A stretch of 57,251 nt of DNA from an uncultured Bacilli bacterium (GTDB lineage Bacteria; Bacillota_I; Bacilli_A; RF39; UBA660), in assembly GCA_944350415.1 (NCBI GenBank), contig CALVOY010000044.1:1-57251 (forward strand), written 5' to 3'. A program made the position numbers and the translations under genes. Below, piece after piece: positions 4,198-18,632 of the stretch (position 1 is its first letter; every line of letters begins with the position of its first letter). The notes under the pieces were generated by a model that was not told where the DNA came from, ran no database searches, and was given only the letters and a program-made list of their open reading frames with translations.

Positions 4198-4557
4198 CTA
4201 ATAATTTTCTACTTCTTCATATTGAAATAATTCTTGATATTTACGACATCTAGATAATAATTCTGAATGTGTTCCAATATCTAGAATTCTTCCTTCATCT
4301 ACAACCACGATTTTATCACAATGAACAACAGTAGATAGACGATGAACAATAATTAAAATTGTTTTATCTCTATCTAATCCATAGATTGCTTTCTGTACTT
4401 GATTTTGAGTAATATTATCTAAGGCACTAATAGCTTCATCAAAAAGCAGAATCTTACTTTTCTTAAGTAAACTTCTAGCAATCGCAAGCCTTCGCTTTTC
4501 TCCACCAGATAAAACAACTCCCCTCTCCCTAGCATTTTTGTCAATAGTTAGGACAAT
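4198..4557 (-). pseudogene. 3' remnant of an ABC exporter ATP-binding domain (no Walker A, no membrane domain, no start codon)
   Basis: Manual translation: IVLTIDKNARERGVVLSGGEKRRLAIARSLLKKSKILLFDEAISALDNITQNQVQKAIYGLDRDKTILIIVHRLSTVVHCDKIVVVDEGRILDIGTHSELLSRCRKYQELFQYEEVENY*. The ABC signature LSGGEKRR, Walker B ILLFDEA and H-loop VHR are present. The frame is closed by TAA at 4558-4560, only 40 nt from the eno stop. Confidence 0.75.
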
Positions 4558-5887: not shown

Positions 5888-7240
5888 TTATTTCTTCAAT
5901 TCGTATGCATATTTCTTAAACTCAGCACCACGTTCTTCACATTCTTTATACTGATCCCAAGAAGCACTAGCAGGACTTAGCAATATTATATCACCCTCTT
6001 TACTAATACTCCAAGCCATTTCAAAAGCATCTTTTAAAAACTCATACTGATAAGTTGGTATTCCCATTTTATCTCCAAAATCTTTTACTCTTTTTCTACA
6101 AGTACCAATTGCCATAATTGCTTTTACATTTCCAACATAATCAGAAAGTTCATTAAAATCCTGCCCTCTTTCATATCCACCTAAGAATAAAATAATTGGT
6201 TGTTGAAACGAAGATAATGCTATTTGACAACACTGAATATTCGTAGCTTCGGTATCATTATAGAATTTTCTACCATCCACCTCACAAACAAACTCTAATC
6301 TATGTTCTACACCACCAAAATCTTTCAAAACTTTTATGATTGCCTCATTACTAACACCTATTTGTTTTACCACAAGAATAGCCGCCATAATATTTTCATA
6401 ATTATGATTTCCAATTAGTTTAATTTGATCTAAATCAACAATTTTTTCATCATAATAATAAATTGCCTGATCTTGAATATAAGCACCATTAATTGGATTC
6501 TTACTAGAGAAATATTGAACTGTTGACTTTATATTTTTTACTAAAGTCAAAGCTTCCTCATTTTCCATATTGGTAATCGCAATATCATCACTTGTTTGAT
6601 TATTAAAAATACGACTCTTTACTTCTTTATAATGCTCATAAGTTTTCATAAATTCAATATGGGCTTCACTAATATTAGTTAGCACCGCAATATGAGGATG
6701 ATACTCTTTTACATTTTCCAGCTGTTGACAACTAATTTCATCAACAATAATATCATTATCTTCTAACTTATCTAAAAAACTACATAAAGGATACCCAATA
6801 TTACCAGCCAAATGAACTCTATAACCATCTTCTTTCATAAAATTATAAATTAATGTTGTGGTAGTAGTTTTACCATTCGTACCCGTAATACCAATTAATT
6901 TAATATTTTTATCTTTAGGAAGAAGACGATAAGACATCTCAGTTTCATTGATTACTTCTATCCCAAGTTCTTTAGCTTTTAACACATATTTATGATCAAT
7001 AGGAATCCCAGGATTCTTAATCAAATATTGAAAACTATTATCCAATAAATCATCAGGATGGGATCCAAAAATAAACTCAACTCCTAAATCTCGTAATTCC
7101 TGAATTTTTTCCAAATCATGTTTATCTTCTTCTTTTCCATCATTAACAATTACTGTATTACCCCGTGCTATCAAAACCTTAGCAACTTCATATCCACTTC
7201 TAGCAAAACCCAAAACCAATATTTTACTATTTTCAAACAT
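5888..7240 (-). CDS. murD: UDP-N-acetylmuramoylalanine--D-glutamate ligase MurD
   Basis: Mur ligase P-loop GITGTNGKTTTTTLI and MurD-type N-terminal Rossmann segment (ILVLGFARSGYEVAKVL). Start moved to ATG 7240 (MFENSK...), which sits behind AGGTGA. Confidence 0.9.
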   Translation of the reverse strand: MFENSKILVLGFARSGYEVAKVLIARGNTVIVNDGKEEDKHDLEKIQELRDLGVEFIFGSHPDDLLDNSFQYLIKNPGIPIDHKYVLKAKELGIEVINETEMSYRLLPKDKNIKLIGITGTNGKTTTTTLIYNFMKEDGYRVHLAGNIGYPLCSFLDKLEDNDIIVDEISCQQLENVKEYHPHIAVLTNISEAHIEFMKTYEHYKEVKSRIFNNQTSDDIAITNMENEEALTLVKNIKSTVQYFSSKNPINGAYIQDQAIYYYDEKIVDLDQIKLIGNHNYENIMAAILVVKQIGVSNEAIIKVLKDFGGVEHRLEFVCEVDGRKFYNDTEATNIQCCQIALSSFQQPIILFLGGYERGQDFNELSDYVGNVKAIMAIGTCRKRVKDFGDKMGIPTYQYEFLKDAFEMAWSISKEGDIILLSPASASWDQYKECEERGAEFKKYAYELKK

Positions 7241-7337: not shown

Positions 7338-8594
7338 ATGATGAAAATTATTACATTGTCAGAAGAACAATTTAATCGATTCAGTGAGAATCATCGATAT
7401 GGCAATCTTTATCAAACCACTAACTATGCAAAAGTAATGAAACAAGAAGGATTTCACTATCACTTATTGGGATTTACGAATAACAGCAATGAACTAATCG
7501 GAGCCACTATGGTCCTTTTTAAAAAAACATTTCTAAACTATAAAGTAGCATATGCTCCCTTTGGCTTTCTAATAGATTATTCCAACAATGATTTAATAGA
7601 AGAGCTAACAAACAAATTAAAGAAATTATTAATCAAACAAAAATTTATTTATTTAAAGATGAACCCTAGAATTTATTGTTCGGAAAGAGATAGAAAAGGA
7701 AATATTCTTTCTTATAATCCTGAAACGAATGATATTTTAGAAATATTGCAACGAAATGGATATATTCATAACGGTTTTAATAATTTTTTTGAAAATCAAA
7801 AGCCGCGTTGGAATGCAGTTCTAAGATTAACTGCCTCTAATGAACGGCTATATAAAAATCTAAGTAAGCAAACTCGAAATAAAATTAGTAAAGCAACAAG
7901 AAAGGGAGTAGAAATCTATGAGGGAACTGAAAAAGATTTAGACATATTATATGAATTTATCAAAAAGAAACATAATCGAAGTTTAAAATACTATAAAAAT
8001 GTTCTGAAAGAATTCCATGAAGATGCCAAAATTTATTTAGCCAAAATCAATACGCAAAGCTATGTTAAAAAAAGCAAAGAAGAATATGAAGCAGAATTAA
8101 AAATGAATGAGCAAATGAATGAAAATCTACAAAAGGCTAGTAGAAGAGGAAAAGATATTACGCGAATTATTAACAAAAAGATGGAATCAGATAAAAGATT
8201 GACTAAATGTCAAAACAATCTAGTGCAAGCTACTAATTATTTTAGTAACTATCCAGATGGACTTATCATTGGTGGATTATTAGCAATCAAATATCAAAAT
8301 GGAATGAATTTGATAATCGAAGGTTTTGATCCAAAATATAGAAGTTTTAATCCAAACTACTTACTAAAATGGGAAATAATCAAAAAACTAAATTTAGAAG
8401 AATATAAATATTTTAATTTAAATGGTATTGTAGGTGAATTTAAAGAAAAGAATAAGTATTCTGGACTAAATGAGATGAAACTAGGATACAATGCCAGCGC
8501 TATGGAATATATTGGAGAATTTGATTTAATTATCAATAAAACAGTATACAATCTCTATCAAACAAAATCAGAAAAAAGTAAGAAAGAAAAATAA
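7338..8594 (+). CDS. FemAB-family peptidoglycan interpeptide-bridge aminoacyltransferase (FemX/MurM-like)
   Basis: 418 aa with the FemAB layout: N-terminal domain (FNRFSENHRYGNLYQTTNYAKV), a central Lys/Glu-rich coiled-coil arm, and C-terminal KYRSFNPNYLLKWEII. It is divergent from murD. Confidence 0.8.
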   Translation: MMKIITLSEEQFNRFSENHRYGNLYQTTNYAKVMKQEGFHYHLLGFTNNSNELIGATMVLFKKTFLNYKVAYAPFGFLIDYSNNDLIEELTNKLKKLLIKQKFIYLKMNPRIYCSERDRKGNILSYNPETNDILEILQRNGYIHNGFNNFFENQKPRWNAVLRLTASNERLYKNLSKQTRNKISKATRKGVEIYEGTEKDLDILYEFIKKKHNRSLKYYKNVLKEFHEDAKIYLAKINTQSYVKKSKEEYEAELKMNEQMNENLQKASRRGKDITRIINKKMESDKRLTKCQNNLVQATNYFSNYPDGLIIGGLLAIKYQNGMNLIIEGFDPKYRSFNPNYLLKWEIIKKLNLEEYKYFNLNGIVGEFKEKNKYSGLNEMKLGYNASAMEYIGEFDLIINKTVYNLYQTKSEKSKKEK

Positions 8595-12061: not shown

Positions 12062-12529
12062 CTACCAACGATAATGTGCAAATGCTTTGTTAGCTTCTGC
12101 CATTCTATGGGTATCTTCACGTTTTTTAACTGCTGCTCCAGTTCCATTGGAAGCATCAATAATTTCATTAGCAAGATTTTCAGCCATTCCTTTTCCGCCT
12201 CTAAGTCTTGCATAATTAACCAACCAACGAAGCCCTAAAGCTTGACTTCTTTCAGGACTAACTTCAATTGGAACTTGATAGTTAGATCCACCAACACGAC
12301 GAGATTTTACTTCAAGTAATGGTTTAATATTCTCTAATGCTTTATTAAAAACATCTAGTGGATTTTCTCCAGTTTTTTCTTTAATCATATCAAAAGCATC
12401 ATATAAAATAGTTTGAGCTTTTCCTTTTTTACCACCAATCATCATACGATTAATTAATTTTGTAACAACTTTTGAATTGTATATAGGATCTGCTAAAACA
12501 TCTCTTTTAACTGCTTGTCTTTTACGCAT
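12062..12529 (-). CDS. rpsG: 30S ribosomal protein S7
   Basis: 155 aa. Canonical S7 sequence ending KAFAHYRW. Confidence 0.97.
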
Positions 12530-12565
12530 GATTATATCCTCCCTTCACAATGATTATTTCTTATT

Positions 12566-12979
12566 TTACTTTTTAGGTTTCTTAGCACCATATTTACTAC
12601 GACCTTGTTTTCTATCTTTAACTCCAGCTGTATCTAAGGTACCACGAATGATGTGATAACGAACTCCGATTAAGTCCTTAACACGTCCACCACGAACCAA
12701 AACAACACTATGCTCTTGTAAGTTATGTCCTTCACCAGGAATATAAGTATCTACTTCTTTTCCATTAGATAAACGAACACGAGCATACTTTCTTAAAGCT
12801 GAGTTTGGTTTCTTTGGTGTCTTAGTACCTACACGAGTACAAACTCCACGTTTTTGTGGACTATTCAATTTAGTAGATTTTCTTTGAATAGTATTAAGTC
12901 CAAATCCTAATACTGGAGATTTACTCTTTCTCACTTTATCAGTTCTCTTTTTTTTAATCAACTGTTGTATCGTAGGCAT
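12566..12979 (-). CDS. rpsL: 30S ribosomal protein S12
   Basis: MPTIQQLI... with the [10 protein letters not shown] motif. 137 aa. Confidence 0.97.
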
Positions 12980-13077
12980 ATTTTATCTCTCCTTTCTTTA
13001 CACATAACCAGGTGTATCATAATTCTATCTAAATATAAGTTTTGCCCAAAGCAAAACCTAAATTTATTAGCATGTAT

Positions 13078-13106
13078 AATATAACATTCTTAACTAGGAA
13101 AGTCAA
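13078..13106 (-). promoter_or_regulatory. Candidate sigma-A promoter of the rpsL-rpsG-fusA-tuf operon
   Basis: Minus strand reads TTGACT-17 nt-TATATT with a TG extended -10 (ATGTTATATT). It lies about 95 nt upstream of the rpsL start. Confidence 0.55.
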
Positions 13107-13319
13107 TAAAAAACTATAAAATATTAGGATAAAATATAGAAATAGATAGCCAATAATAAAACATAATACCACTAAATGCAGAATGCATATATTTCTTTTT
13201 CATAAAATTCCATGTGAAATAGAATGAATAAATTCTTCTGTTAAATTATAAGTCTTCTATTTCATATTTCAAAACATAAAATAATGATAAAAAATAAAAA
13301 GATAATGTATATTATCTAA

Positions 13320-13436
13320 TCAGCCAAGTCCTAAATTAGAGGCACCAATGCTAATTAAAATAATAGCAATAAAGAATACCAACAGAAATGCTAGTAATAC
13401 CCCAAGTCCCCAACCACGATTATTTAAATGAAACAT
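13320..13436 (-). CDS. Small hydrophobic protein (38 aa), below the ORF-track cutoff
   Basis: Translation is MFHLNNRGWGLGVLLAFLLVFFIAIILISIGASNLGLG*. The ATG is preceded by AGAGGTG at 6 nt. One TM helix. Confidence 0.5.
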   Translation of the reverse strand: MFHLNNRGWGLGVLLAFLLVFFIAIILISIGASNLGLG

Positions 13437-13555
13437 GCTATCACCTCTAATGATATTATTATATGATAAAACCAAAGAAAAAGGAAGATAAACCACAATA
13501 TTTCTTCCATATAAAAATAGTATAAAAAAATTATAAAATATTAAAAATATATATT

Positions 13556-14728
13556 TTATTTGAAAGTTTTCATTTTCTGAAAAGCCTGTTCAATCACTTG
13601 AAATTGTTCTGAAAACACATTTTTTTGTTCTAATAAATCTGTATTCTCTTCTTCTAACTGTTTCTTTTCTGCTTCTATTTGGATCAATTGCTCTTTTAAG
13701 CTTTGTAGCTCTTCTTTTAAACTTTGATTTTCTTTTTCCAATACAGAATAATTAGATTGAACACTATCCATATTGATATGTGCCTTAGAACAAATTAAGT
13801 TATTACAAGCATCTATTAGCTTTCTAATATCTTCACTAAGTTCCACCTCACCAACTACTTCAGAAATCGTATTAATATCTAATATATCCCCACCTGCAAT
13901 AGTATCTACCAAAAAACTCAAAACATTAGAATCAGTTTGTTTGGATTCTAAATTAGCTTTTGTTTTATTAATAGAGAAAAAATAATCACTAGAAGTAGAA
14001 GGAGTAGCATCATATTTTTTAGCGAAACTTATTACTCTTTTTAAAGCATCTATTTTATCATTTAAAGAAACTTTGATACTATTAGTATAATTTGCATTAC
14101 GATTATTTATTTTCATATGATATGGATAAGTTAAATCTTGTTTAAATGCTATTCTACTAATATAATTATCAAATTCACTGTAATCATCATATTTTCTAGA
14201 AGTAACAGGCAAATAAATAAAATCAACTGTAGGACTTTTCACTAATCCTAAAATCCCATAAGAACTAAGTGCTATTTTTCTAACAATATAATAGTCACAA
14301 ACTTCAGCCATTTCTTCTACTTGATAGGTTCTTTCTCTATCGTATTTAATCACAAATACAAGATCATCTGTTCTAATTTTAATATTAGATAAAAAGGAAT
14401 CTAATTTTTCATGAACATTTTTGGAAAAAATAGAATTACTATCCAGTTTTCCACTACTAATTAATCTAGAAAATTGATAGGAATTTTCTAAAAAATAATG
14501 AAGAGAATCATAAGAATTAGTTGCGGATTTAAAAAATCCCAATTGTCTTAAGTAATCAATATTAACACCTAAAAGATGAGCAATATGATTTTTAGGTACC
14601 ATAATATTTAACATTTCACCATTAGCAAGATATAAAACCTGTTGATTAGTATCAAAAGTCATTCTATCATATCGTTCTACACAATCATTAATTTTATCAA
14701 TTATAGCATTAAATTCACCTGTAGTCAT
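13556..14728 (-). CDS. Orphan 390-aa protein: N-terminal globular region plus C-terminal heptad coiled coil, with no signal peptide
   Basis: Long ORF whose ATG follows a GGGGGG Shine-Dalgarno. The C-terminus is LEKENQSLKEELQSLKEQLIQIEAEKKQLEEENTDLLEQ. It sits between rpoC and rpsL. No family recognised. Confidence 0.7.
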   Translation of the reverse strand: MTTGEFNAIIDKINDCVERYDRMTFDTNQQVLYLANGEMLNIMVPKNHIAHLLGVNIDYLRQLGFFKSATNSYDSLHYFLENSYQFSRLISSGKLDSNSIFSKNVHEKLDSFLSNIKIRTDDLVFVIKYDRERTYQVEEMAEVCDYYIVRKIALSSYGILGLVKSPTVDFIYLPVTSRKYDDYSEFDNYISRIAFKQDLTYPYHMKINNRNANYTNSIKVSLNDKIDALKRVISFAKKYDATPSTSSDYFFSINKTKANLESKQTDSNVLSFLVDTIAGGDILDINTISEVVGEVELSEDIRKLIDACNNLICSKAHINMDSVQSNYSVLEKENQSLKEELQSLKEQLIQIEAEKKQLEEENTDLLEQKNVFSEQFQVIEQAFQKMKTFK

Positions 14729-14756
14729 AATATAACCCCCCTTTTTAAGTGGTCAT

Positions 14757-14789
14757 ATTATATCCCCCCCCCCCCCACCACCTTGTCAA
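14757..14789 (-). promoter_or_regulatory. Consensus -35/-10 promoter with a homopolymeric G13 spacer (candidate phase-variable promoter)
   Basis: Minus strand reads TTGACA (14784-14789), AGGTGGT, G13, A, TATAAT (14757-14762). The spacer is 21 nt. The downstream start codon is at 14728. Confidence 0.65.
14764..14776. repeat. Homopolymeric tract C13 (+ strand) / G13 (- strand)
   Basis: Counted directly: tatCCCCCCC CCCCCCacca. It is the only long G/C homopolymer I noticed in the window. Confidence 0.95.
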
Positions 14790-14980
14790 GAGGGAATACT
14801 TTTCTTTAAAAAGTATACTAATAAATTAAAACTAATAATACTCATTTTGGTTAAATATAAATAGGATAATTTTAATTTCAAAAAATTGATAATTGCAGCC
14901 AAAATGTTAACAAAAAACATCAATCAATAACACATCATAATATGATAATAAGGAATAGCAAAAAATTCTAAAATCTCTTT

Positions 14981-15019
14981 AAAAAAGAAAAAAAAGAAGA
15001 GTCTACATAAACTCTTCTT
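14981..15019 (-). terminator. Intrinsic terminator of rpoBC
   Basis: 9-bp stem AAGAAGAGT/ACTCTTCTT encloses the rpoC stop codon. On the minus strand it is followed by TTTTTTTTC. Confidence 0.75.
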
Positions 15020-18000
15020 CTAATGTTTCAAGTGGTTCTTCATCCACAAACTGACTAGCTAAATCAAAATCAACATTTTTATATTTTTTAGCACCTGTAC
15101 CAGCTGGGATTAATTTACCAATAATAACATTTTCTTTTAATCCTTCTAGGTGATCAACTTTACCACGAATAGCGGCATCTGTTAAAATACGAGTCGTTTC
15201 TTGGAAACTTGCTGCAGATAAGAATGATTCTGTCTCTAGAGAAGCCTTGGTAATACCTAAAAGAATTGGTCTACCACTAGCTGGTTTTTTACCAGTAATA
15301 ATAGCTTCTTTATTAGCACTAGTAAAGGTTGAAAAGTCTACCAAGGCTCCTGGTAAGAACTTCGTTCCTCCTCCTTCAACAATACGAATCTTACTAATCA
15401 TTTTGCTAGCAATTACTTCAATATGTTTATCAGAAATGTCAACACCTTGACTACGATAAGTATTTTGAACTTCTTTTAAGATATATTCTTGAGTAGTAAG
15501 TGGATCCGTTACAGCAAGTAATTCTTTAGGGCTAATTGCACCTTCGGTAAGCTTTTCACCTGCTACTACTTTAGAACCCTTTTCTACACGAAGTTTAGCG
15601 CCATAATTGGTAACATGTTCTTTGGTTTCAACATCATTCTTAATGGAAATTCTAAACTTACCATGATCTTCATCAATCTTCGTAACTTCACCATCAATTT
15701 CAGCAATGGTTGCTTTTCCTTTTGGAATACGAGCTTCAAATAATTCTTGTACACGAGGAAGACCTTGGGTAATATCTTCTCCACCAGCAACTCCACCAGT
15801 ATGGAAAGTTCTCATGGTCAACTGTGTACCAGGTTCTCCAATAGATTGAGCTGCCATAACTCCAATAGCTTCTCCAACTTCTACTAAGTTACCTGTAGCT
15901 AAGTTACGTCCATAACATTTTTGACATACACCATGGTTAGAAGCACAAGTTAAAATTGTACGAATTTCAACTTCTTCAACACCACTAGCTACAATCTTAT
16001 CAGCAAGCTGTTCTGTTACAAAAGTTAATTTATCACAAATCACTTCTTTGGTTTCTGGATGAATTACTTTCTTATTTGTAAATCTACCAACAATTCTATC
16101 TCTTAACGATTCAATCACAGCACCAGTTTTATCATTAATGAATGCGCGAACTACAACACCTTGATCAGTTTCACAATCTTCTTCGCGAACGATAATATCT
16201 TGACTAACATCTACCAAACGACGAGTTAAATATCCAGAATCAGCTGTTTTCAAAGCAGTATCAGCACTACCTTTACGAGCACCATGAGTACTTAAGAAGA
16301 ACTCAGATACTGACAATCCTTCTTTGAAAGAAGATAATACTGGAATTTCTACACTTTCTCCATTAGGTTTTGCCATTAATCCACGCATACCTGCAACCTG
16401 TGTAAAGTTAGAAATATTACCACGTGCTTTAGAATGCATCATCATGAAAATTGGATTATCCATATCCGCATTCGCTTTTTCTTGAAGTTCTGCTTGAACT
16501 TGATCTTTAGCACTATTCCATGTTTCCACTACTTTCTCATATCTCTCTTGATCAGTAATCAAACCACGTTTATATTGTTTATTAATATTATCTACAATTT
16601 TCTGAGCATCCTGAACAATTTCAGGTTTCTTATCACTGCTTACAACATCAGCCATAGATACCGTAATACCAGCAATCGTAGAATATTTAAATCCTAAATC
16701 TTTTAATTTATCCAACATGATAGAAGTCTCAGTTGTTTTATAGCGTTTAAAAATCTGCGCAATAACTTTTTCTAAAACACCTTTAGCAAAAGGTTTCACA
16801 AGTGGCATATTAGCTACTACTTCAGGAATATTCTTTCCCATCTCAATGAAATATTTATTAGGTGTAATATTTTGAATATTATCATCAGTAGGTTCATTAA
16901 TATAAGGGAAAGAATCCGGTAAAATTTCATTAAATTTAACCTTACCAACAGTAGTAACTAAGTACTTTCCATGTTGTTCTTCCGTAAATAATTTATATTT
17001 GAAAGAATCTACTGGAATTACGATTCTGGTATGAAGAGTTACTTCTCTTCTTTCATAAGCCATTAAAGCTTCGTTAGTGTTTCTGAAAATTCTTCCTTCA
17101 TCTGGAAGACCAGCTTTTTCCATCGTAATATAATAATTACCTAATACCATATCTTGAGATGGAGTTACAATCGGATCTCCTGATTTTGGATGTAAAATGT
17201 TGTTAGCACCTAACATTAAAAGTCTAGCTTCAGCTTTTGCTTCTTCGGATAAAGGTACATGAACTGCCATTTGATCTCCATCGAAGTCAGCATTAAATGC
17301 TGTACAAACAAGTGGATGCAAACGAATAGCTTTACCACCAATTAATACCGGTTCAAAAGCCTGAATACCAAGTCTATGAAGTGTAGGAGCACGGTTTAAT
17401 AATACAGGATGCTCTTTGATTACTTCTTCTACAACATCCCAAACAATAGGATCTTGATTTTCAATTAATCGCTTAGCAGCTTTGATATTATGAGCAATAT
17501 CTTTGCTTACTAATCCATGAATAACATGTGGTTTAAATAACTCAAGTGCCATTTCTTTTGGAATACCACATTGATACATTTTAAGAGATGGCCCAACGAC
17601 AATAACACTACGACCAGAATAATCAACACGTTTACCAAGTAAGTTTTGACGGAAACGTCCTTGTTTTCCTTTTAACATGCTAGAAAGTGATTTTAAAGGT
17701 CTATTACCAGCACCAGTTACACTTCTACCACGACGTCCATTATCAAATAAGGCATCAACAGCTTCTTGCAACATACGTTTTTCATTTTGAATAATGATAC
17801 TAGGAGCACCTAAATCAATTAACTTCTTTAAACGATTATTACGATTAATGACACGACGATATAAATCATTCAAATCACTAGTTGCGAACCTACCACCATC
17901 TAATTGGATCATTGGTCTTAACTCTGGTGGAATTACTGGAATACAATCCATAATCATCCATTCTGGTTTATTGCCAGATTTATGGAAAGCATCTAATACA

Positions 18001-18632
18001 TCAATTCGTTTAAGTAAACGAGTTCTTTTTTGACCTTGAGCATCTTCTAACTCTTTAGTAAGTTCATTTAATTCTGCTTCAATATCTACTTTTTTCAAAA
18101 GCTCTTTGATAGCTTCTGCTCCCATACCAACCTTAAAAGTATTACCATATTTTTCATAGTAAGCACGATATTCTTTCTCTGATAAAGTTTGTTTATTTTC
18201 TAAAGGCGTATTTCCTTTATCAATCACAACATAACTTACAAAATATAATACTTCTTCAAGATCTCTTGGACTCATATCCAAAACAAGACCCATACGGCTA
18301 GGTACACCTTTAAAGAACCAAATATGAGAAACAGGAGACGCAAGTTCAATGTGACCCATTCTCTCACGTCTTACTTTACTACGAGTAACTTCAACTCCAC
18401 AACGATCACATACGATATTTTTATAACGAACTCTCTTATATTTACCACATGCACACTCGAAATCTTTTGTAGGTCCAAAAATTTTCTCGCAGAATAATCC
18501 GTCACGTTCTGGTCTTAAAGTACGATAGTTAATCGTTTCTGGTTTCTTAACTTCACCATAACTCCATTCACGAATCTTTTCAGGAGATGCAATACCAATT
18601 TTTAAAGCTTCAAATTTATCTACTGCTATCAT
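15003..18632 (-). CDS. rpoC: DNA-directed RNA polymerase subunit beta'
   Basis: 1209 aa with the NADFDGDQM catalytic motif and the zinc-binding CxCGKY...C..C segment. Confidence 0.98.

Follow-up and report, generated by a model that had tools for sequence, protein, structure and literature searches.

The PBECR domains reported by Iyer et al. (2017, PMC5512222) belong to phages and conjugative elements, where they occur either within polyvalent proteins or as products of solo genes, and conflict proteins of such elements are the only known source of PBECR4. For the whole clade RNase activity has only been predicted; its signature is a histidine in an N-terminal helix together with a serine or threonine in strand 4, and inactive PBECR domains are also known, the MuF-C domain of phage Mu having been proposed to serve binding only (PMC5512222). 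Extra strands ahead of the histidine helix were reported for PBECRs and CDI toxins in a 2026 preprint. An experimentally shown activity of a PBECR4 (PF18813) protein was not found in the literature searched.

Single-gene abortive-infection systems, the Abi genes, are known from lactococci and other Firmicutes. Contingency loci with a repeat in the promoter spacer include porA and opc of Neisseria meningitidis, hif of Haemophilus influenzae, and vlp of Mycoplasma hyorhinis. The principle of repeats in promoter spacers which act as contingency loci has been stated in PMC5084427.

Here a gene for a protein of 390 amino acids is described, which lies in a window (the whole stretch of DNA analysed) of 57,251 nucleotides. 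The protein family to which it belongs resembles the PBECR clade, and PBECR4 in particular, in that relatives match the PBECR4 model, in the layout of a histidine helix and a serine or threonine strand, in the presence of extra strands, and in having phage proteins as structural neighbours. It differs from the clade in being chromosomal and solo, in carrying a helical domain and a coiled coil in addition, and in going undetected in phage, plasmid, and IMG/VR collections, the window protein itself being too divergent to match the Pfam model. The predicted fold class and the layout of histidine and serine or threonine are shared with the BECR tRNases colicin D, colicin E5, and CdiA-CT; these toxins, however, leave the cell by secretion or delivery and are invariably paired with a cognate immunity protein, whereas the 390 amino acid protein has neither a secretion signal or delivery domain nor an immunity gene, and none of them gave a significant Foldseek match to it. 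Like the Abi genes, the gene stands alone with no partner, has a low GC content and a constitutive promoter, and encodes a cytoplasmic product, which plausibly acts on RNA and is plausibly costly to the cell, but no PADLOC Abi model matched it, and it is chromosomal and syntenic rather than plasmid-borne. With the promoter-spacer contingency loci it shares a homopolymer between the promoter hexamers which sets their spacing and which is the only polymorphism between two related loci (L001 and L002), and a second lineage of the family uses the intragenic frameshift version of such a switch. Known contingency loci mostly concern surface proteins, glycosyltransferases, and restriction-modification genes of cultured pathogens, in contrast to the cytoplasmic predicted RNase of an uncultured gut commensal found here, for which, as a further difference, no allele of ON length was observed.

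The gene between rpoC and rpsL

On the minus strand the genes follow each other in the order rpoC (15003–18632), the 390 amino acid reading frame, a small peptide reading frame, rpsL (12566–12979), rpsG, fusA, and tuf. The gap between rpoC and rpsL amounts to 2,023 nt and holds the two reading frames in place of an L7Ae-like gene, which is absent from it, as had been described in the original prediction. Including its stop codon, the reading frame of the 390 amino acid protein occupies positions 13556–14728 of the minus strand and starts with ATG. Because of the clusters of homologs described below and a dN/dS of 0.27 as compared to the closest ortholog lineage it is to be regarded as a selected gene and not as a chance reading frame. 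An intrinsic terminator of rpoC on the same strand (14992–15021), consisting of a 13 bp stem followed by a run of T with a folding energy of −13.8 kcal/mol (z = −2.7), shields the gene from read-through from rpoBC. The protein is cytoplasmic: its predicted lack of a transmembrane segment was borne out by a maximum Kyte-Doolittle mean over 19 residues of 1.12, and neither a secretion signal nor a delivery domain was found in it. A recent foreign origin of the gene was considered on the basis of composition and rejected, its GC content being 26% as compared to a mean of 30.8% (SD 3.2%) and its GC3 of 0.13 being host-like and close to that of tuf. A scan of positions 12400–15200 with Rfam yielded no RNA family.

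The gene is contained in a block of 1.6 kb (13206–14814), which has a counterpart of 89.7% identity in a related MAG. Besides the 390 amino acid gene and its promoter with the G tract, the block includes the peptide gene and the beginning of hlyIII. In the MAG the same block is located between intact lysR and hlyIII genes; in the window these two have decayed to remnants, and the 390 amino acid gene and the peptide gene have been kept intact. The remnant of the LysR-family regulator gene (minus strand, 14806–14873) matches nucleotides 631–700 of the intact lysR of L001, with a score of 71 in local DNA alignment as compared to a maximum of 34 in 200 shuffles. Its final codons run on to a TGA overlapping the −35 hexamer of the 390 amino acid gene, and the blastn homology block with L001 begins at 14814. 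The remnant of the HlyIII-family membrane protein gene (minus strand, 13153–13268), recognised in tblastn and blastn comparisons with the intact gene of L001, consists of codons 6–26, with a stop inside, joined to codons 190–210, about 160 internal codons having been deleted. LysR was also considered as a dedicated regulator; the gene is co-directional in L001, degraded in the window, and absent from other contexts.

The second gene in the gap (minus strand, 13320–13436) encodes a conserved membrane peptide of 38 amino acids (MFHLNNRGWGLGVLLAFLLVFFIAIILISIGASNLGLG), and its ATG is preceded by AGAGGTGA. This gene, too, had been predicted and proved to be genuine and conserved, the peptide being 97% identical in L001 and L002 and having relatives of 37–38 amino acids in 26 clusters at 74–95% identity. 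A terminator scan between the two genes found none, the intergenic RNA folds no better than shuffled sequences, and the peptide gene may be co-transcribed with the 390 amino acid gene.

The protein family and its candidate active site

The original prediction had called the 390 amino acid protein an orphan, which proved to be wrong. Full-length homologs were found in 40 clusters with 29–91% identity, and a profile search yielded at least 335 clusters (at 50% identity) of proteins of about 380 amino acids with the same architecture; among the 150 family matches listed nearly all have 370–410 amino acids, with the N-terminal domain corresponding to residues 1–243. All members seen come from uncultured gut Bacilli, with 25–47% identity among related ones, and a second word-index search with a diverse profile of the N-terminal domain gave nothing beyond the family. 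The family is large, previously uncharacterised and made up of cytoplasmic proteins in which a predicted RNase domain of phage type is combined with a tail forming a coiled coil.

Residues 1–243 (minus strand, 14000–14728) form an alpha/beta domain modelled by AF2 with a pLDDT of 92, which is probably a divergent PBECR4 domain, that is, a colicin-D-like predicted metal-independent endoRNase of the BECR fold. Precomputed matches to PF18813 are carried by 12 of the 40 homologs, and the family member P0030 scores 28.1 bits over residues 33–183, the gathering score being 27. PBECR4 was also matched by 2 of 67 distant members (best E = 7e-11), and the PBECR4-matching members in turn match the family profile with E < 1e-36. 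As the window protein itself gave no match to the Pfam PBECR4 model at E ≤ 1, its membership is transitive by way of these relatives. Searches of Pfam and NCBIfam with the window protein returned only coiled-coil noise and no housekeeping family, and a PDB sequence search with the N-terminal domain profile returned nothing. The sole significant structural neighbours found by Foldseek were two phage proteins matching the N-terminal domain with a probability of 1.0 and TM scores of 0.5–0.6. Against the PDB neither the full model nor that of the N-terminal domain gave a significant match, be it to a BECR or to another fold, the best hits (E 5e-3) being unrelated folds and CdiA-CT and ParE-type toxins appearing only at E of about 0.5–0.8.

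His51, Ser102, Lys108, and Gln197 are invariant in all 67 aligned family sequences, and position 176 is always alcoholic (38 threonines and 29 serines), the sequences otherwise being only 21–37% identical to the window protein. In the AF2 model His51 is located in a short predicted helix (46–52) preceding the sheet, and Thr176 in a predicted strand (171–180), which is the fourth strand after the histidine helix and the last core strand. The order of secondary structure elements fits the BECR core fold, in which a helix precedes a sheet of four to five strands, and two extra strands lie ahead of the histidine helix. The PBECR signature is present in the family in the form of His51 and Thr/Ser176, and these two residues together with Ser102, Lys108, and Gln197 constitute a candidate active site; an endoribonuclease activity of the 390 amino acid protein is predicted. 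From the two histidine-containing segments pointed out originally, PKNHIAHLLGV does hold the invariant His51, but in KNVHEKL it is Lys108 which is invariant, the histidine being unconserved.

The globular N-terminal part and the C-terminal coiled coil of the original prediction are supported by the AF2 model and the heptad count. A helical middle domain (residues 244–320; minus strand, 13769–13999) with helices at 247–279, 285–292, and 299–319 contains the near-invariant motif LIxxCN(D/N), and Asn309 is found in 66 of the 67 sequences. It is followed by the heptad coiled coil (residues 321–390; minus strand, 13559–13768), which AF2 models as one single helix from 327 to 389 and whose best heptad register places hydrophobic residues at 15 of 20 a/d positions. 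This coiled coil most likely makes the protein dimeric.

The promoter and its poly-G tract

Upstream of the gene, on the minus strand, a −35 hexamer TTGACA of perfect consensus can be read directly (14784–14789), at the same place as the −35 hexamer of homologs without a tract. The sequence and the comparison with homologs yield a −10 hexamer TATAAT (14757–14762), 28 nt upstream of the ATG, and a Shine-Dalgarno element GGGGGG is found at 14736–14741. Nearly all homologs are preceded by a conserved (A)AGGGGG motif. The spacer between the hexamers contains a homopolymer of 13 G (C13 on the plus strand; 14764–14776), which is the proposed slipped-strand switch and is included in the −35/−10 spacing of 21 nt. 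In 24 of 26 homolog loci without a tract this spacing is 15–17 nt, mostly 17, at an equal distance to the ATG. The G13 tract is the sole G/C run of at least 7 in the 57 kb window, which has 30.5% GC, and all G/C runs of at least 8 in 335 kb of homolog loci and the window fall at the loci of this gene family. A long homopolymer between −35 and −10 is the arrangement seen in promoter-spacer contingency loci.

The length of the tract varies. In 3,491 bp shared by L001 and L002 the only difference is one of tract length, G12 as opposed to G13; among conspecific assemblies G13 (after GGT) and G16 both occur, and two further contigs end inside the tract. In the second lineage a stretch of 9,523 bp distinguishes L029 from L020 by nothing but an intragenic run, G13 in L029 and G9 in L020, the former giving an intact protein of 393 amino acids and the latter a frameshift. 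Such a length polymorphism in otherwise identical sequences is typical of contingency loci, with the caveat that sequencing or assembly artefacts have to be considered. Illumina sequencing is prone to errors in long poly-G runs, and the differences in homopolymer length and the contig breaks could have arisen there or during assembly. A practical warning is that metagenome assemblies break or differ precisely at poly-G tracts. A scan of JGI metagenomes with the promoter pattern and for close relatives yielded nothing and hence no further tract alleles.

All six assemblies of the window's clade have a spacer of 19–21 nt or a tract left unresolved, and none has 17 nt; as the observed spacers are 2–4 steps away from 17 nt, no ON state is seen. 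The reading frame is intact in all six. In L001, L002, L033, and L035 the −10 element is extended by TGn (TGATATAAT), and an extended −10 of this kind can work without a properly spaced −35. It is proposed that changes of the spacing by slippage lead to stochastic expression, and the poly-G tract in the promoter probably makes the expression of the gene stochastic. The ON/OFF expression suggested originally is thus plausible with regard to a tract which lies between perfect hexamers and varies in length, but the effect on transcription is one that we infer.

Possible roles of the predicted RNase

The best explanation, to which a probability of roughly one half may be assigned, is that the gene encodes a domesticated chromosomal RNase of the conflict type, a single-gene Abi-like or growth-arrest effector which is phase-variable and restrained in cis. 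It would be a cytoplasmic protein of three parts, a PBECR4-type domain (1–240), a helical domain (247–319), and a coiled coil (327–389), with His51 as the predicted catalytic residue and Thr176 on the last core strand as its alcoholic partner, and the RNase would be held back in cis by the helical and coiled-coil part instead of by an antitoxin. Throughout its family, which resides on the chromosomes of small-genome uncultured gut Bacilli, the gene is solo and self-contained; it is equipped with a sigma-A promoter close to consensus and a strong Shine-Dalgarno element and has no immunity partner. A hypermutable G12–G16 tract has replaced the AT-rich 17 nt spacer in the window's lineage, and slipped-strand mispairing would shift the −35/−10 spacing, which is 19–21 nt in the states seen. 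In the majority tract state expression is predicted to be weak or OFF, and phase variation would manage the cost of the effector.

A defence or conflict role is suggested by the relationship with PBECR4, which fits the defence or toxin effector guessed in the original prediction; against it stand the lack of a consistent PADLOC family, of an immunity gene, and of phage or plasmid relatives. PADLOC-DB v2 gave a weak PDC-M68B match (E = 3.8e-4) and coiled-coil-type LmuB noise with the window protein, and no common family with the 67 family members, none being matched by more than 2 of them. With PHROGs the window protein yielded only coiled-coil noise and the 67 members no common family. No match was obtained when the N-terminal domain was compared by tblastn with the records of 50,697 phages and 72,556 plasmids, and no relative by a scan of IMG/VR with family patterns. 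Clustering of neighbouring reading frames over 24 loci revealed no family common to different contexts and no immunity gene. Neighbours of conflict type, which speak for such a role, are present in some genomes: one homolog (L006) has an island of Gabija, Schlafen-like, and helicase genes 1.3 kb upstream, and another (L030) is adjoined by Fic/RhuM. The near-consensus constitutive promoters of the homologs without a tract would be unexpected for an unrestrained toxin.

The genomic context of the homologs bears on a possible but rather doubtful alternative, a lineage-specific housekeeping or regulatory RNA-processing factor derived from a PBECR domain recruited long ago, which would serve the core of the cell, for instance in the maturation or decay of RNA or in quality control at the ribosome, and whose level is only tuned by the G tract. 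Each homolog stands alone behind a TTGACA-N17-TATAAT promoter of its own, and their loci are all chromosomal and mostly among housekeeping genes, which is to be expected by chance since these small genomes mostly consist of such genes. Their position is syntenic inside sublineages, across many species (as seen in 9 genomes from the CAG:451 group), and different between sublineages, a pattern more like vertical inheritance than that of a mobile defence gene. This synteny speaks for a processing factor, as do the strong constitutive promoters and Shine-Dalgarno elements of the homologs, the frequent translation and RNA genes among their neighbours (rplS, tuf/eno, RNase J, mini-RNase III/rlmB/nusG, and rpoC/rpsL in the window), the host-like GC3, and the absence of an immunity gene and of phage or plasmid relatives. 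The homologs do not, however, sit between rpoC and rpsL as expected from a lineage-specific core gene in a conserved position, and the gene has been inactivated in Clostridium sp. CAG:451, where it contains a nonsense codon, and in L020 by the frameshift. In addition, hypermutable switches arose twice, which is typical of contingency rather than core genes, the family diverges fast, the dN/dS of 0.27 lies above what is usual for core genes, and no housekeeping family was matched in Pfam or NCBIfam.

It is quite improbable that the expansion to G13–G16 is a silencing event, which disabled the promoter for good in a gene heading for loss in a reductive genome, the length variation being artefactual. 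None of the six clade assemblies has a 17 nt spacer, lysR and hlyIII on either side are already reduced to remnants, and poly-G is error-prone on Illumina, all of which would fit; but the reading frame is intact in all six assemblies and was kept while its neighbours were lost, the dN/dS of 0.27 between two tract-bearing lineages means that selection continued after the tract had arisen, and the extended −10 of L001, L002, L033, and L035 may act without a properly spaced −35. Very improbable is a non-catalytic scaffold, in which the PBECR-like domain would bind RNA or protein and the coiled coil would build a structural assembly. The length of the coiled coil, the existence of inactive PBECR domains (PMC5512222), and the lack of a PDB RNase matching the fold are in accordance with it; five polar residues conserved in 67 of 67 sequences at 21–37% identity, in contrast, are the pattern of an active site and the configuration of active PBECRs. 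Hardly credible is a role as toxin in a toxin-antitoxin or toxin-immunity pair of two genes, the partner being the 38 amino acid peptide or another neighbour, since, even though the two genes are kept together in two contexts with no terminator-like site in between, the peptide was rejected as an antitoxin or partner for being hydrophobic, of membrane type, far more conserved (74–95%) than the 390 amino acid protein, adjacent to its gene only in the window's clade, and absent from ±5 kb of every other homolog examined, and no neighbour family is common across contexts.

The domesticated conflict-type RNase remains the preferred reading. With considerable reservation it may be extended to an unrecognised class of single-gene chromosomal BECR RNase effectors without immunity protein, widespread in small-genome uncultured gut Bacilli and used for bet-hedging by growth arrest or abortive infection. 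Poly-G switches would have evolved in it recurrently, within the promoter spacer in one lineage and within the gene in another, and it would then be the first phase-variable RNase contingency locus.

While PBECRs are a large and purely predicted class of phage-type RNases, the family described here offers a compact solo chromosomal version of them, which is directly testable because of its clear candidate active site of five residues. If the poly-G tracts do switch the gene, contingency biology would extend to uncultured gut commensal Bacilli and to a cytoplasmic RNA-directed enzyme, and the family would provide an example of a potentially toxic enzyme being maintained with no antitoxin to restrain it.

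A conserved three-domain protein with a probable PBECR4-type domain

The minus strand of the window carries, in this order, rpoC (15003-18632) with a good intrinsic terminator at its 3' end (15021-14992), the gene of a 390 amino acids protein (13556-14728, ATG start; X in the following), a small peptide reading frame, rpsL (12566-12979), rpsG, fusA, and tuf. The gap of 2,023 nucleotides between rpoC and rpsL is as described in the original prediction, and it lacks an L7Ae-like gene. The reading frame had also been described correctly, as had the absence of a transmembrane segment (peak 19-residue hydropathy 1.12) and the C-terminal heptad coiled coil, in which 15 of 20 a/d positions are hydrophobic in the best register. 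The protein can no longer be called an orphan. Full-length homologs (377-406 amino acids, 29-91% identity) formed 40 clusters in a word-index search, none of them with a name; one family member at NCBI is annotated as 'hypothetical protein [Bacilli bacterium]'. An exhaustive HMM search with a profile of the N-terminal domain yielded 335 clusters (50% identity) at E <= 1e-3 and 193 at E <= 1e-30, and nearly all of the 150 family clusters listed among the 335 are 370-410 amino acids long with the domain at residues 1-243. The recovered genome loci all belong to metagenome-assembled genomes of uncultured 'Firmicutes' or Bacilli of human, mouse, and ruminant guts, Clostridium sp. CAG:451 among them. 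The GC3 of X is host-like, and comparison with the closest ortholog lineage (metagenome contig L001, 94% nucleotide and 91% amino acid identity) gave a dN/dS of 0.27.

The product of X is a conserved, selected, cytoplasmic protein of three domains. AF2 models were confident for the full length (pLDDT 84) and for residues 1-243 (pLDDT 92, pTM 0.85). A long helix (3-23) opens the N-terminal domain; a beta hairpin (28-34/39-43) comes next, followed by a short helix bearing histidine 51 (46-52), a helical insert (57-116), four strands (123-128, 146-153, 156-164, and 171-180), and finally a helix, a hairpin, and a last helix reaching to about residue 238. A helical region (247-319) and a low-confidence linker (319-324) connect it to one long helix (327-389), the coiled coil, through which the protein is predicted to dimerise. 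Among 67 family members just 21-37% identical to the window protein, histidine 51, glycine 54, serine 102, lysine 108, and glutamine 197 are invariant, position 176 is always threonine or serine, and asparagine 309 is found in 66.

Standard libraries searched with the window protein yielded coiled-coil noise only. It is the homologs which tie the N-terminal domain to Pfam PF18813, PBECR4 ('phage-Barnase-EndoU-ColicinE5/D-RelE-like nuclease 4'): precomputed matches exist for 12 of the 40, the homolog P0030 scores 28.1 bits over residues 33-183 (gathering score 27), and two of the 67 distant members match the model, the best with E = 7e-11. Histidine 51 together with threonine/serine 176 exactly fits the PBECR residue signature of Iyer et al. 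[quoted passage not shown] According to a 2026 preprint, PBECRs fall into a 'colicin-like' group of BECR domains, in which extra strands often precede the histidine helix, and such strands are also present in the AF2 model. Foldseek found no significant neighbours of the protein in the PDB, where BECR toxins such as CdiA-CT and ParE/YoeB reached E values of about 0.5-0.8 only; in BFVD two unnamed phage proteins were hit at probability 1.0 (TM 0.5-0.6). By way of its homologs the N-terminal domain is judged to be of a divergent PBECR4 type, in which the predicted catalytic dyad is intact, and the protein is predicted to be an endoribonuclease. No experimental RNase activity of any PBECR4 protein was found in the literature searched.

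Solo genes in changing neighbourhoods

In every context of the family the gene stands solo, and the contexts vary between sublineages. Besides rpoC-X-rpsL in the window, they comprise lysR-X-hlyIII (contigs L001, L002, and L008), FAD protein-X-rplS-lepB, eno-X-GATase-priA, RNase J-X-ftsK, X-mini-RNase III-rlmB-secE-nusG, leuS-X-Fic/RhuM, an island with Gabija, a Schlafen-like protein and a helicase followed by X (L006), and several further ones. Within a sublineage the position is conserved, as exemplified by nine CAG:451-group genomes. Clustering of the neighbouring reading frames over 24 loci gave no family common to different contexts and therefore no immunity or partner gene. Relatives were found neither in phage or plasmid records nor in IMG/VR, and PADLOC and PHROGs gave no consistent match for 67 members. 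The island on L006 (1-4660), 1.3 kb upstream of homolog P0036, is a defence island that encodes a Gabija-like pair of OLD-TOPRIM/AAA ATPase and UvrD helicase together with a ResIII/SNF2 helicase and a protein of the Schlafen/AlbA_2 type. In the window a FemAB-family peptidyltransferase gene (7338-8594, plus strand) adjoins tuf; in L025, L020, and L029 the homolog sits in the same tuf/FemAB/eno neighbourhood, a hint that these regions have a shared ancestry.

A block of 1.6 kb (13206-14814), which extends from the promoter through X and the peptide gene into hlyIII (first 26 codons), is 89.7% identical between the window and L001, L002, and L008, where it lies between intact lysR and intact hlyIII. 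In the window remnants of both genes are left on the minus strand, a HlyIII-family one (13153-13268) with codons 6-26, including a stop, fused to codons 190-210, and a LysR-family one (14806-14873 plus the last codons; local alignment score 71, shuffle maximum 34). That X and the peptide gene were kept while the flanking genes decayed argues for selection on both, and the locus illustrates how reductive decay can proceed on either side of a selected cassette. Of the promoter-like sites upstream of rpsL, the best one (TTGAAA-16-TATAAT, 11 of 12 positions, 13245-13272, minus strand) falls on the border of the hlyIII remnant. The former hlyIII promoter may therefore serve the str operon today. 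The peptide gene (13320-13436, minus strand) encodes a small membrane protein of 38 amino acids, MFHLNNRGWGLGVLLAFLLVFFIAIILISIGASNLGLG, which is strongly conserved (26 clusters, 37-38 amino acids, 74-95% identity), far above the 390 amino acids protein. Its N-terminus NNRGWGL loosely resembles a prepilin-type signal, but without the glutamate at +5. As it is not adjacent to other homologs of X it was treated as an independent gene; in the window it may be co-transcribed with X, and a scan found no terminator-like sites between the two.

A poly-G tract in the promoter or in the reading frame

Of 26 loci without the tract, 24 provide the gene with its own TTGACA/TTTACA-(15-17, mostly 17)-TATAAT promoter, often with a TGn extended -10, located 23-33 nucleotides from the ATG, and an AAGGGGG Shine-Dalgarno element is conserved in the family. 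In the window the hexamers are perfect and the distance to the ATG is 28 nucleotides as in the tract-less homologs, but the hexamers are 21 nucleotides apart. This spacer (14763-14783, minus strand) consists of AGGTGGT, G13, and A, and no other G/C run in the window (30.5% GC) reaches 7. Every G/C run of at least 8 in 335 kb of fetched loci is located at homologs of X.

Related assemblies disagree precisely at this tract, although differing homopolymer lengths and broken contigs can have technical causes. L001 and L002, from different samples, differ over 3,491 bp solely by G12 versus G13 (spacers of 19 and 20 nucleotides). In L034, from the species of the window and with one nucleotide difference in the gene, an uninterrupted G16 (1436-1451) replaces GGT plus G13 in a spacer of again 21 nucleotides, and two independent metagenome contigs of this species (L033 and L035) terminate inside the tract, at position 1. 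Independently, in another lineage of the family, L029 has a G13 within the coding region (4221-4233) which leaves the protein intact (393 amino acids) and encodes extra glycines in a loop between helices of the middle domain, whereas L020, otherwise identical over 9,523 bp and possibly derived from the same reads, has G9 at this site (6871-6879) and a frameshift to 306 amino acids. A hypermutable tract is found inside the core promoter in the window and inside the reading frame in another lineage. Repeats altering the spacing of promoter elements and intragenic repeats shifting the frame are the two classic mechanisms of phase variation (PMC5084427). Tract length is predicted to switch transcription of X ON and OFF; as none of the assemblies compared has a spacer of 16-18 nucleotides, the promoter as sampled is expected to be weak or OFF. 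The promoter region (14729-14800, minus strand), which precedes the likely transcription start, has an unusually stable single-strand fold (-24.8 kcal/mol, z = -3.7), owing to pairing of the G tract with CCCUCUU 5' of the -35.

Possible role of the family

Solo genes with self-contained promoters and occasional inactivation characterise the family. In CAG:451 (L015) codon 288 of the homolog is an in-frame stop, which cuts the protein off ahead of its helical and coiled-coil C-terminal part; 3' of it the reading frame shows no other damage, and the G run in the Shine-Dalgarno region is expanded to G7. We give a probability of about 0.5 to X encoding a conflict-type phase-variable RNase, with an Abi-like or growth-arrest role that would be restrained in cis. 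The main alternative, a lineage-specific housekeeping RNA factor, would agree with the synteny within lineages, the strong constitutive promoters of family members, and the lack of an immunity gene, but is rather unlikely; the contingency switches recurring in the family and its pseudogenes argue against it. Other explanations appear less probable still.

PBECR domains as predicted RNases and simple sequence repeat contingency loci are both known kinds. New are the combination of the two, the architecture of a solo chromosomal gene whose product adds a helical domain and a coiled coil, and the occurrence in uncultured gut Bacilli.
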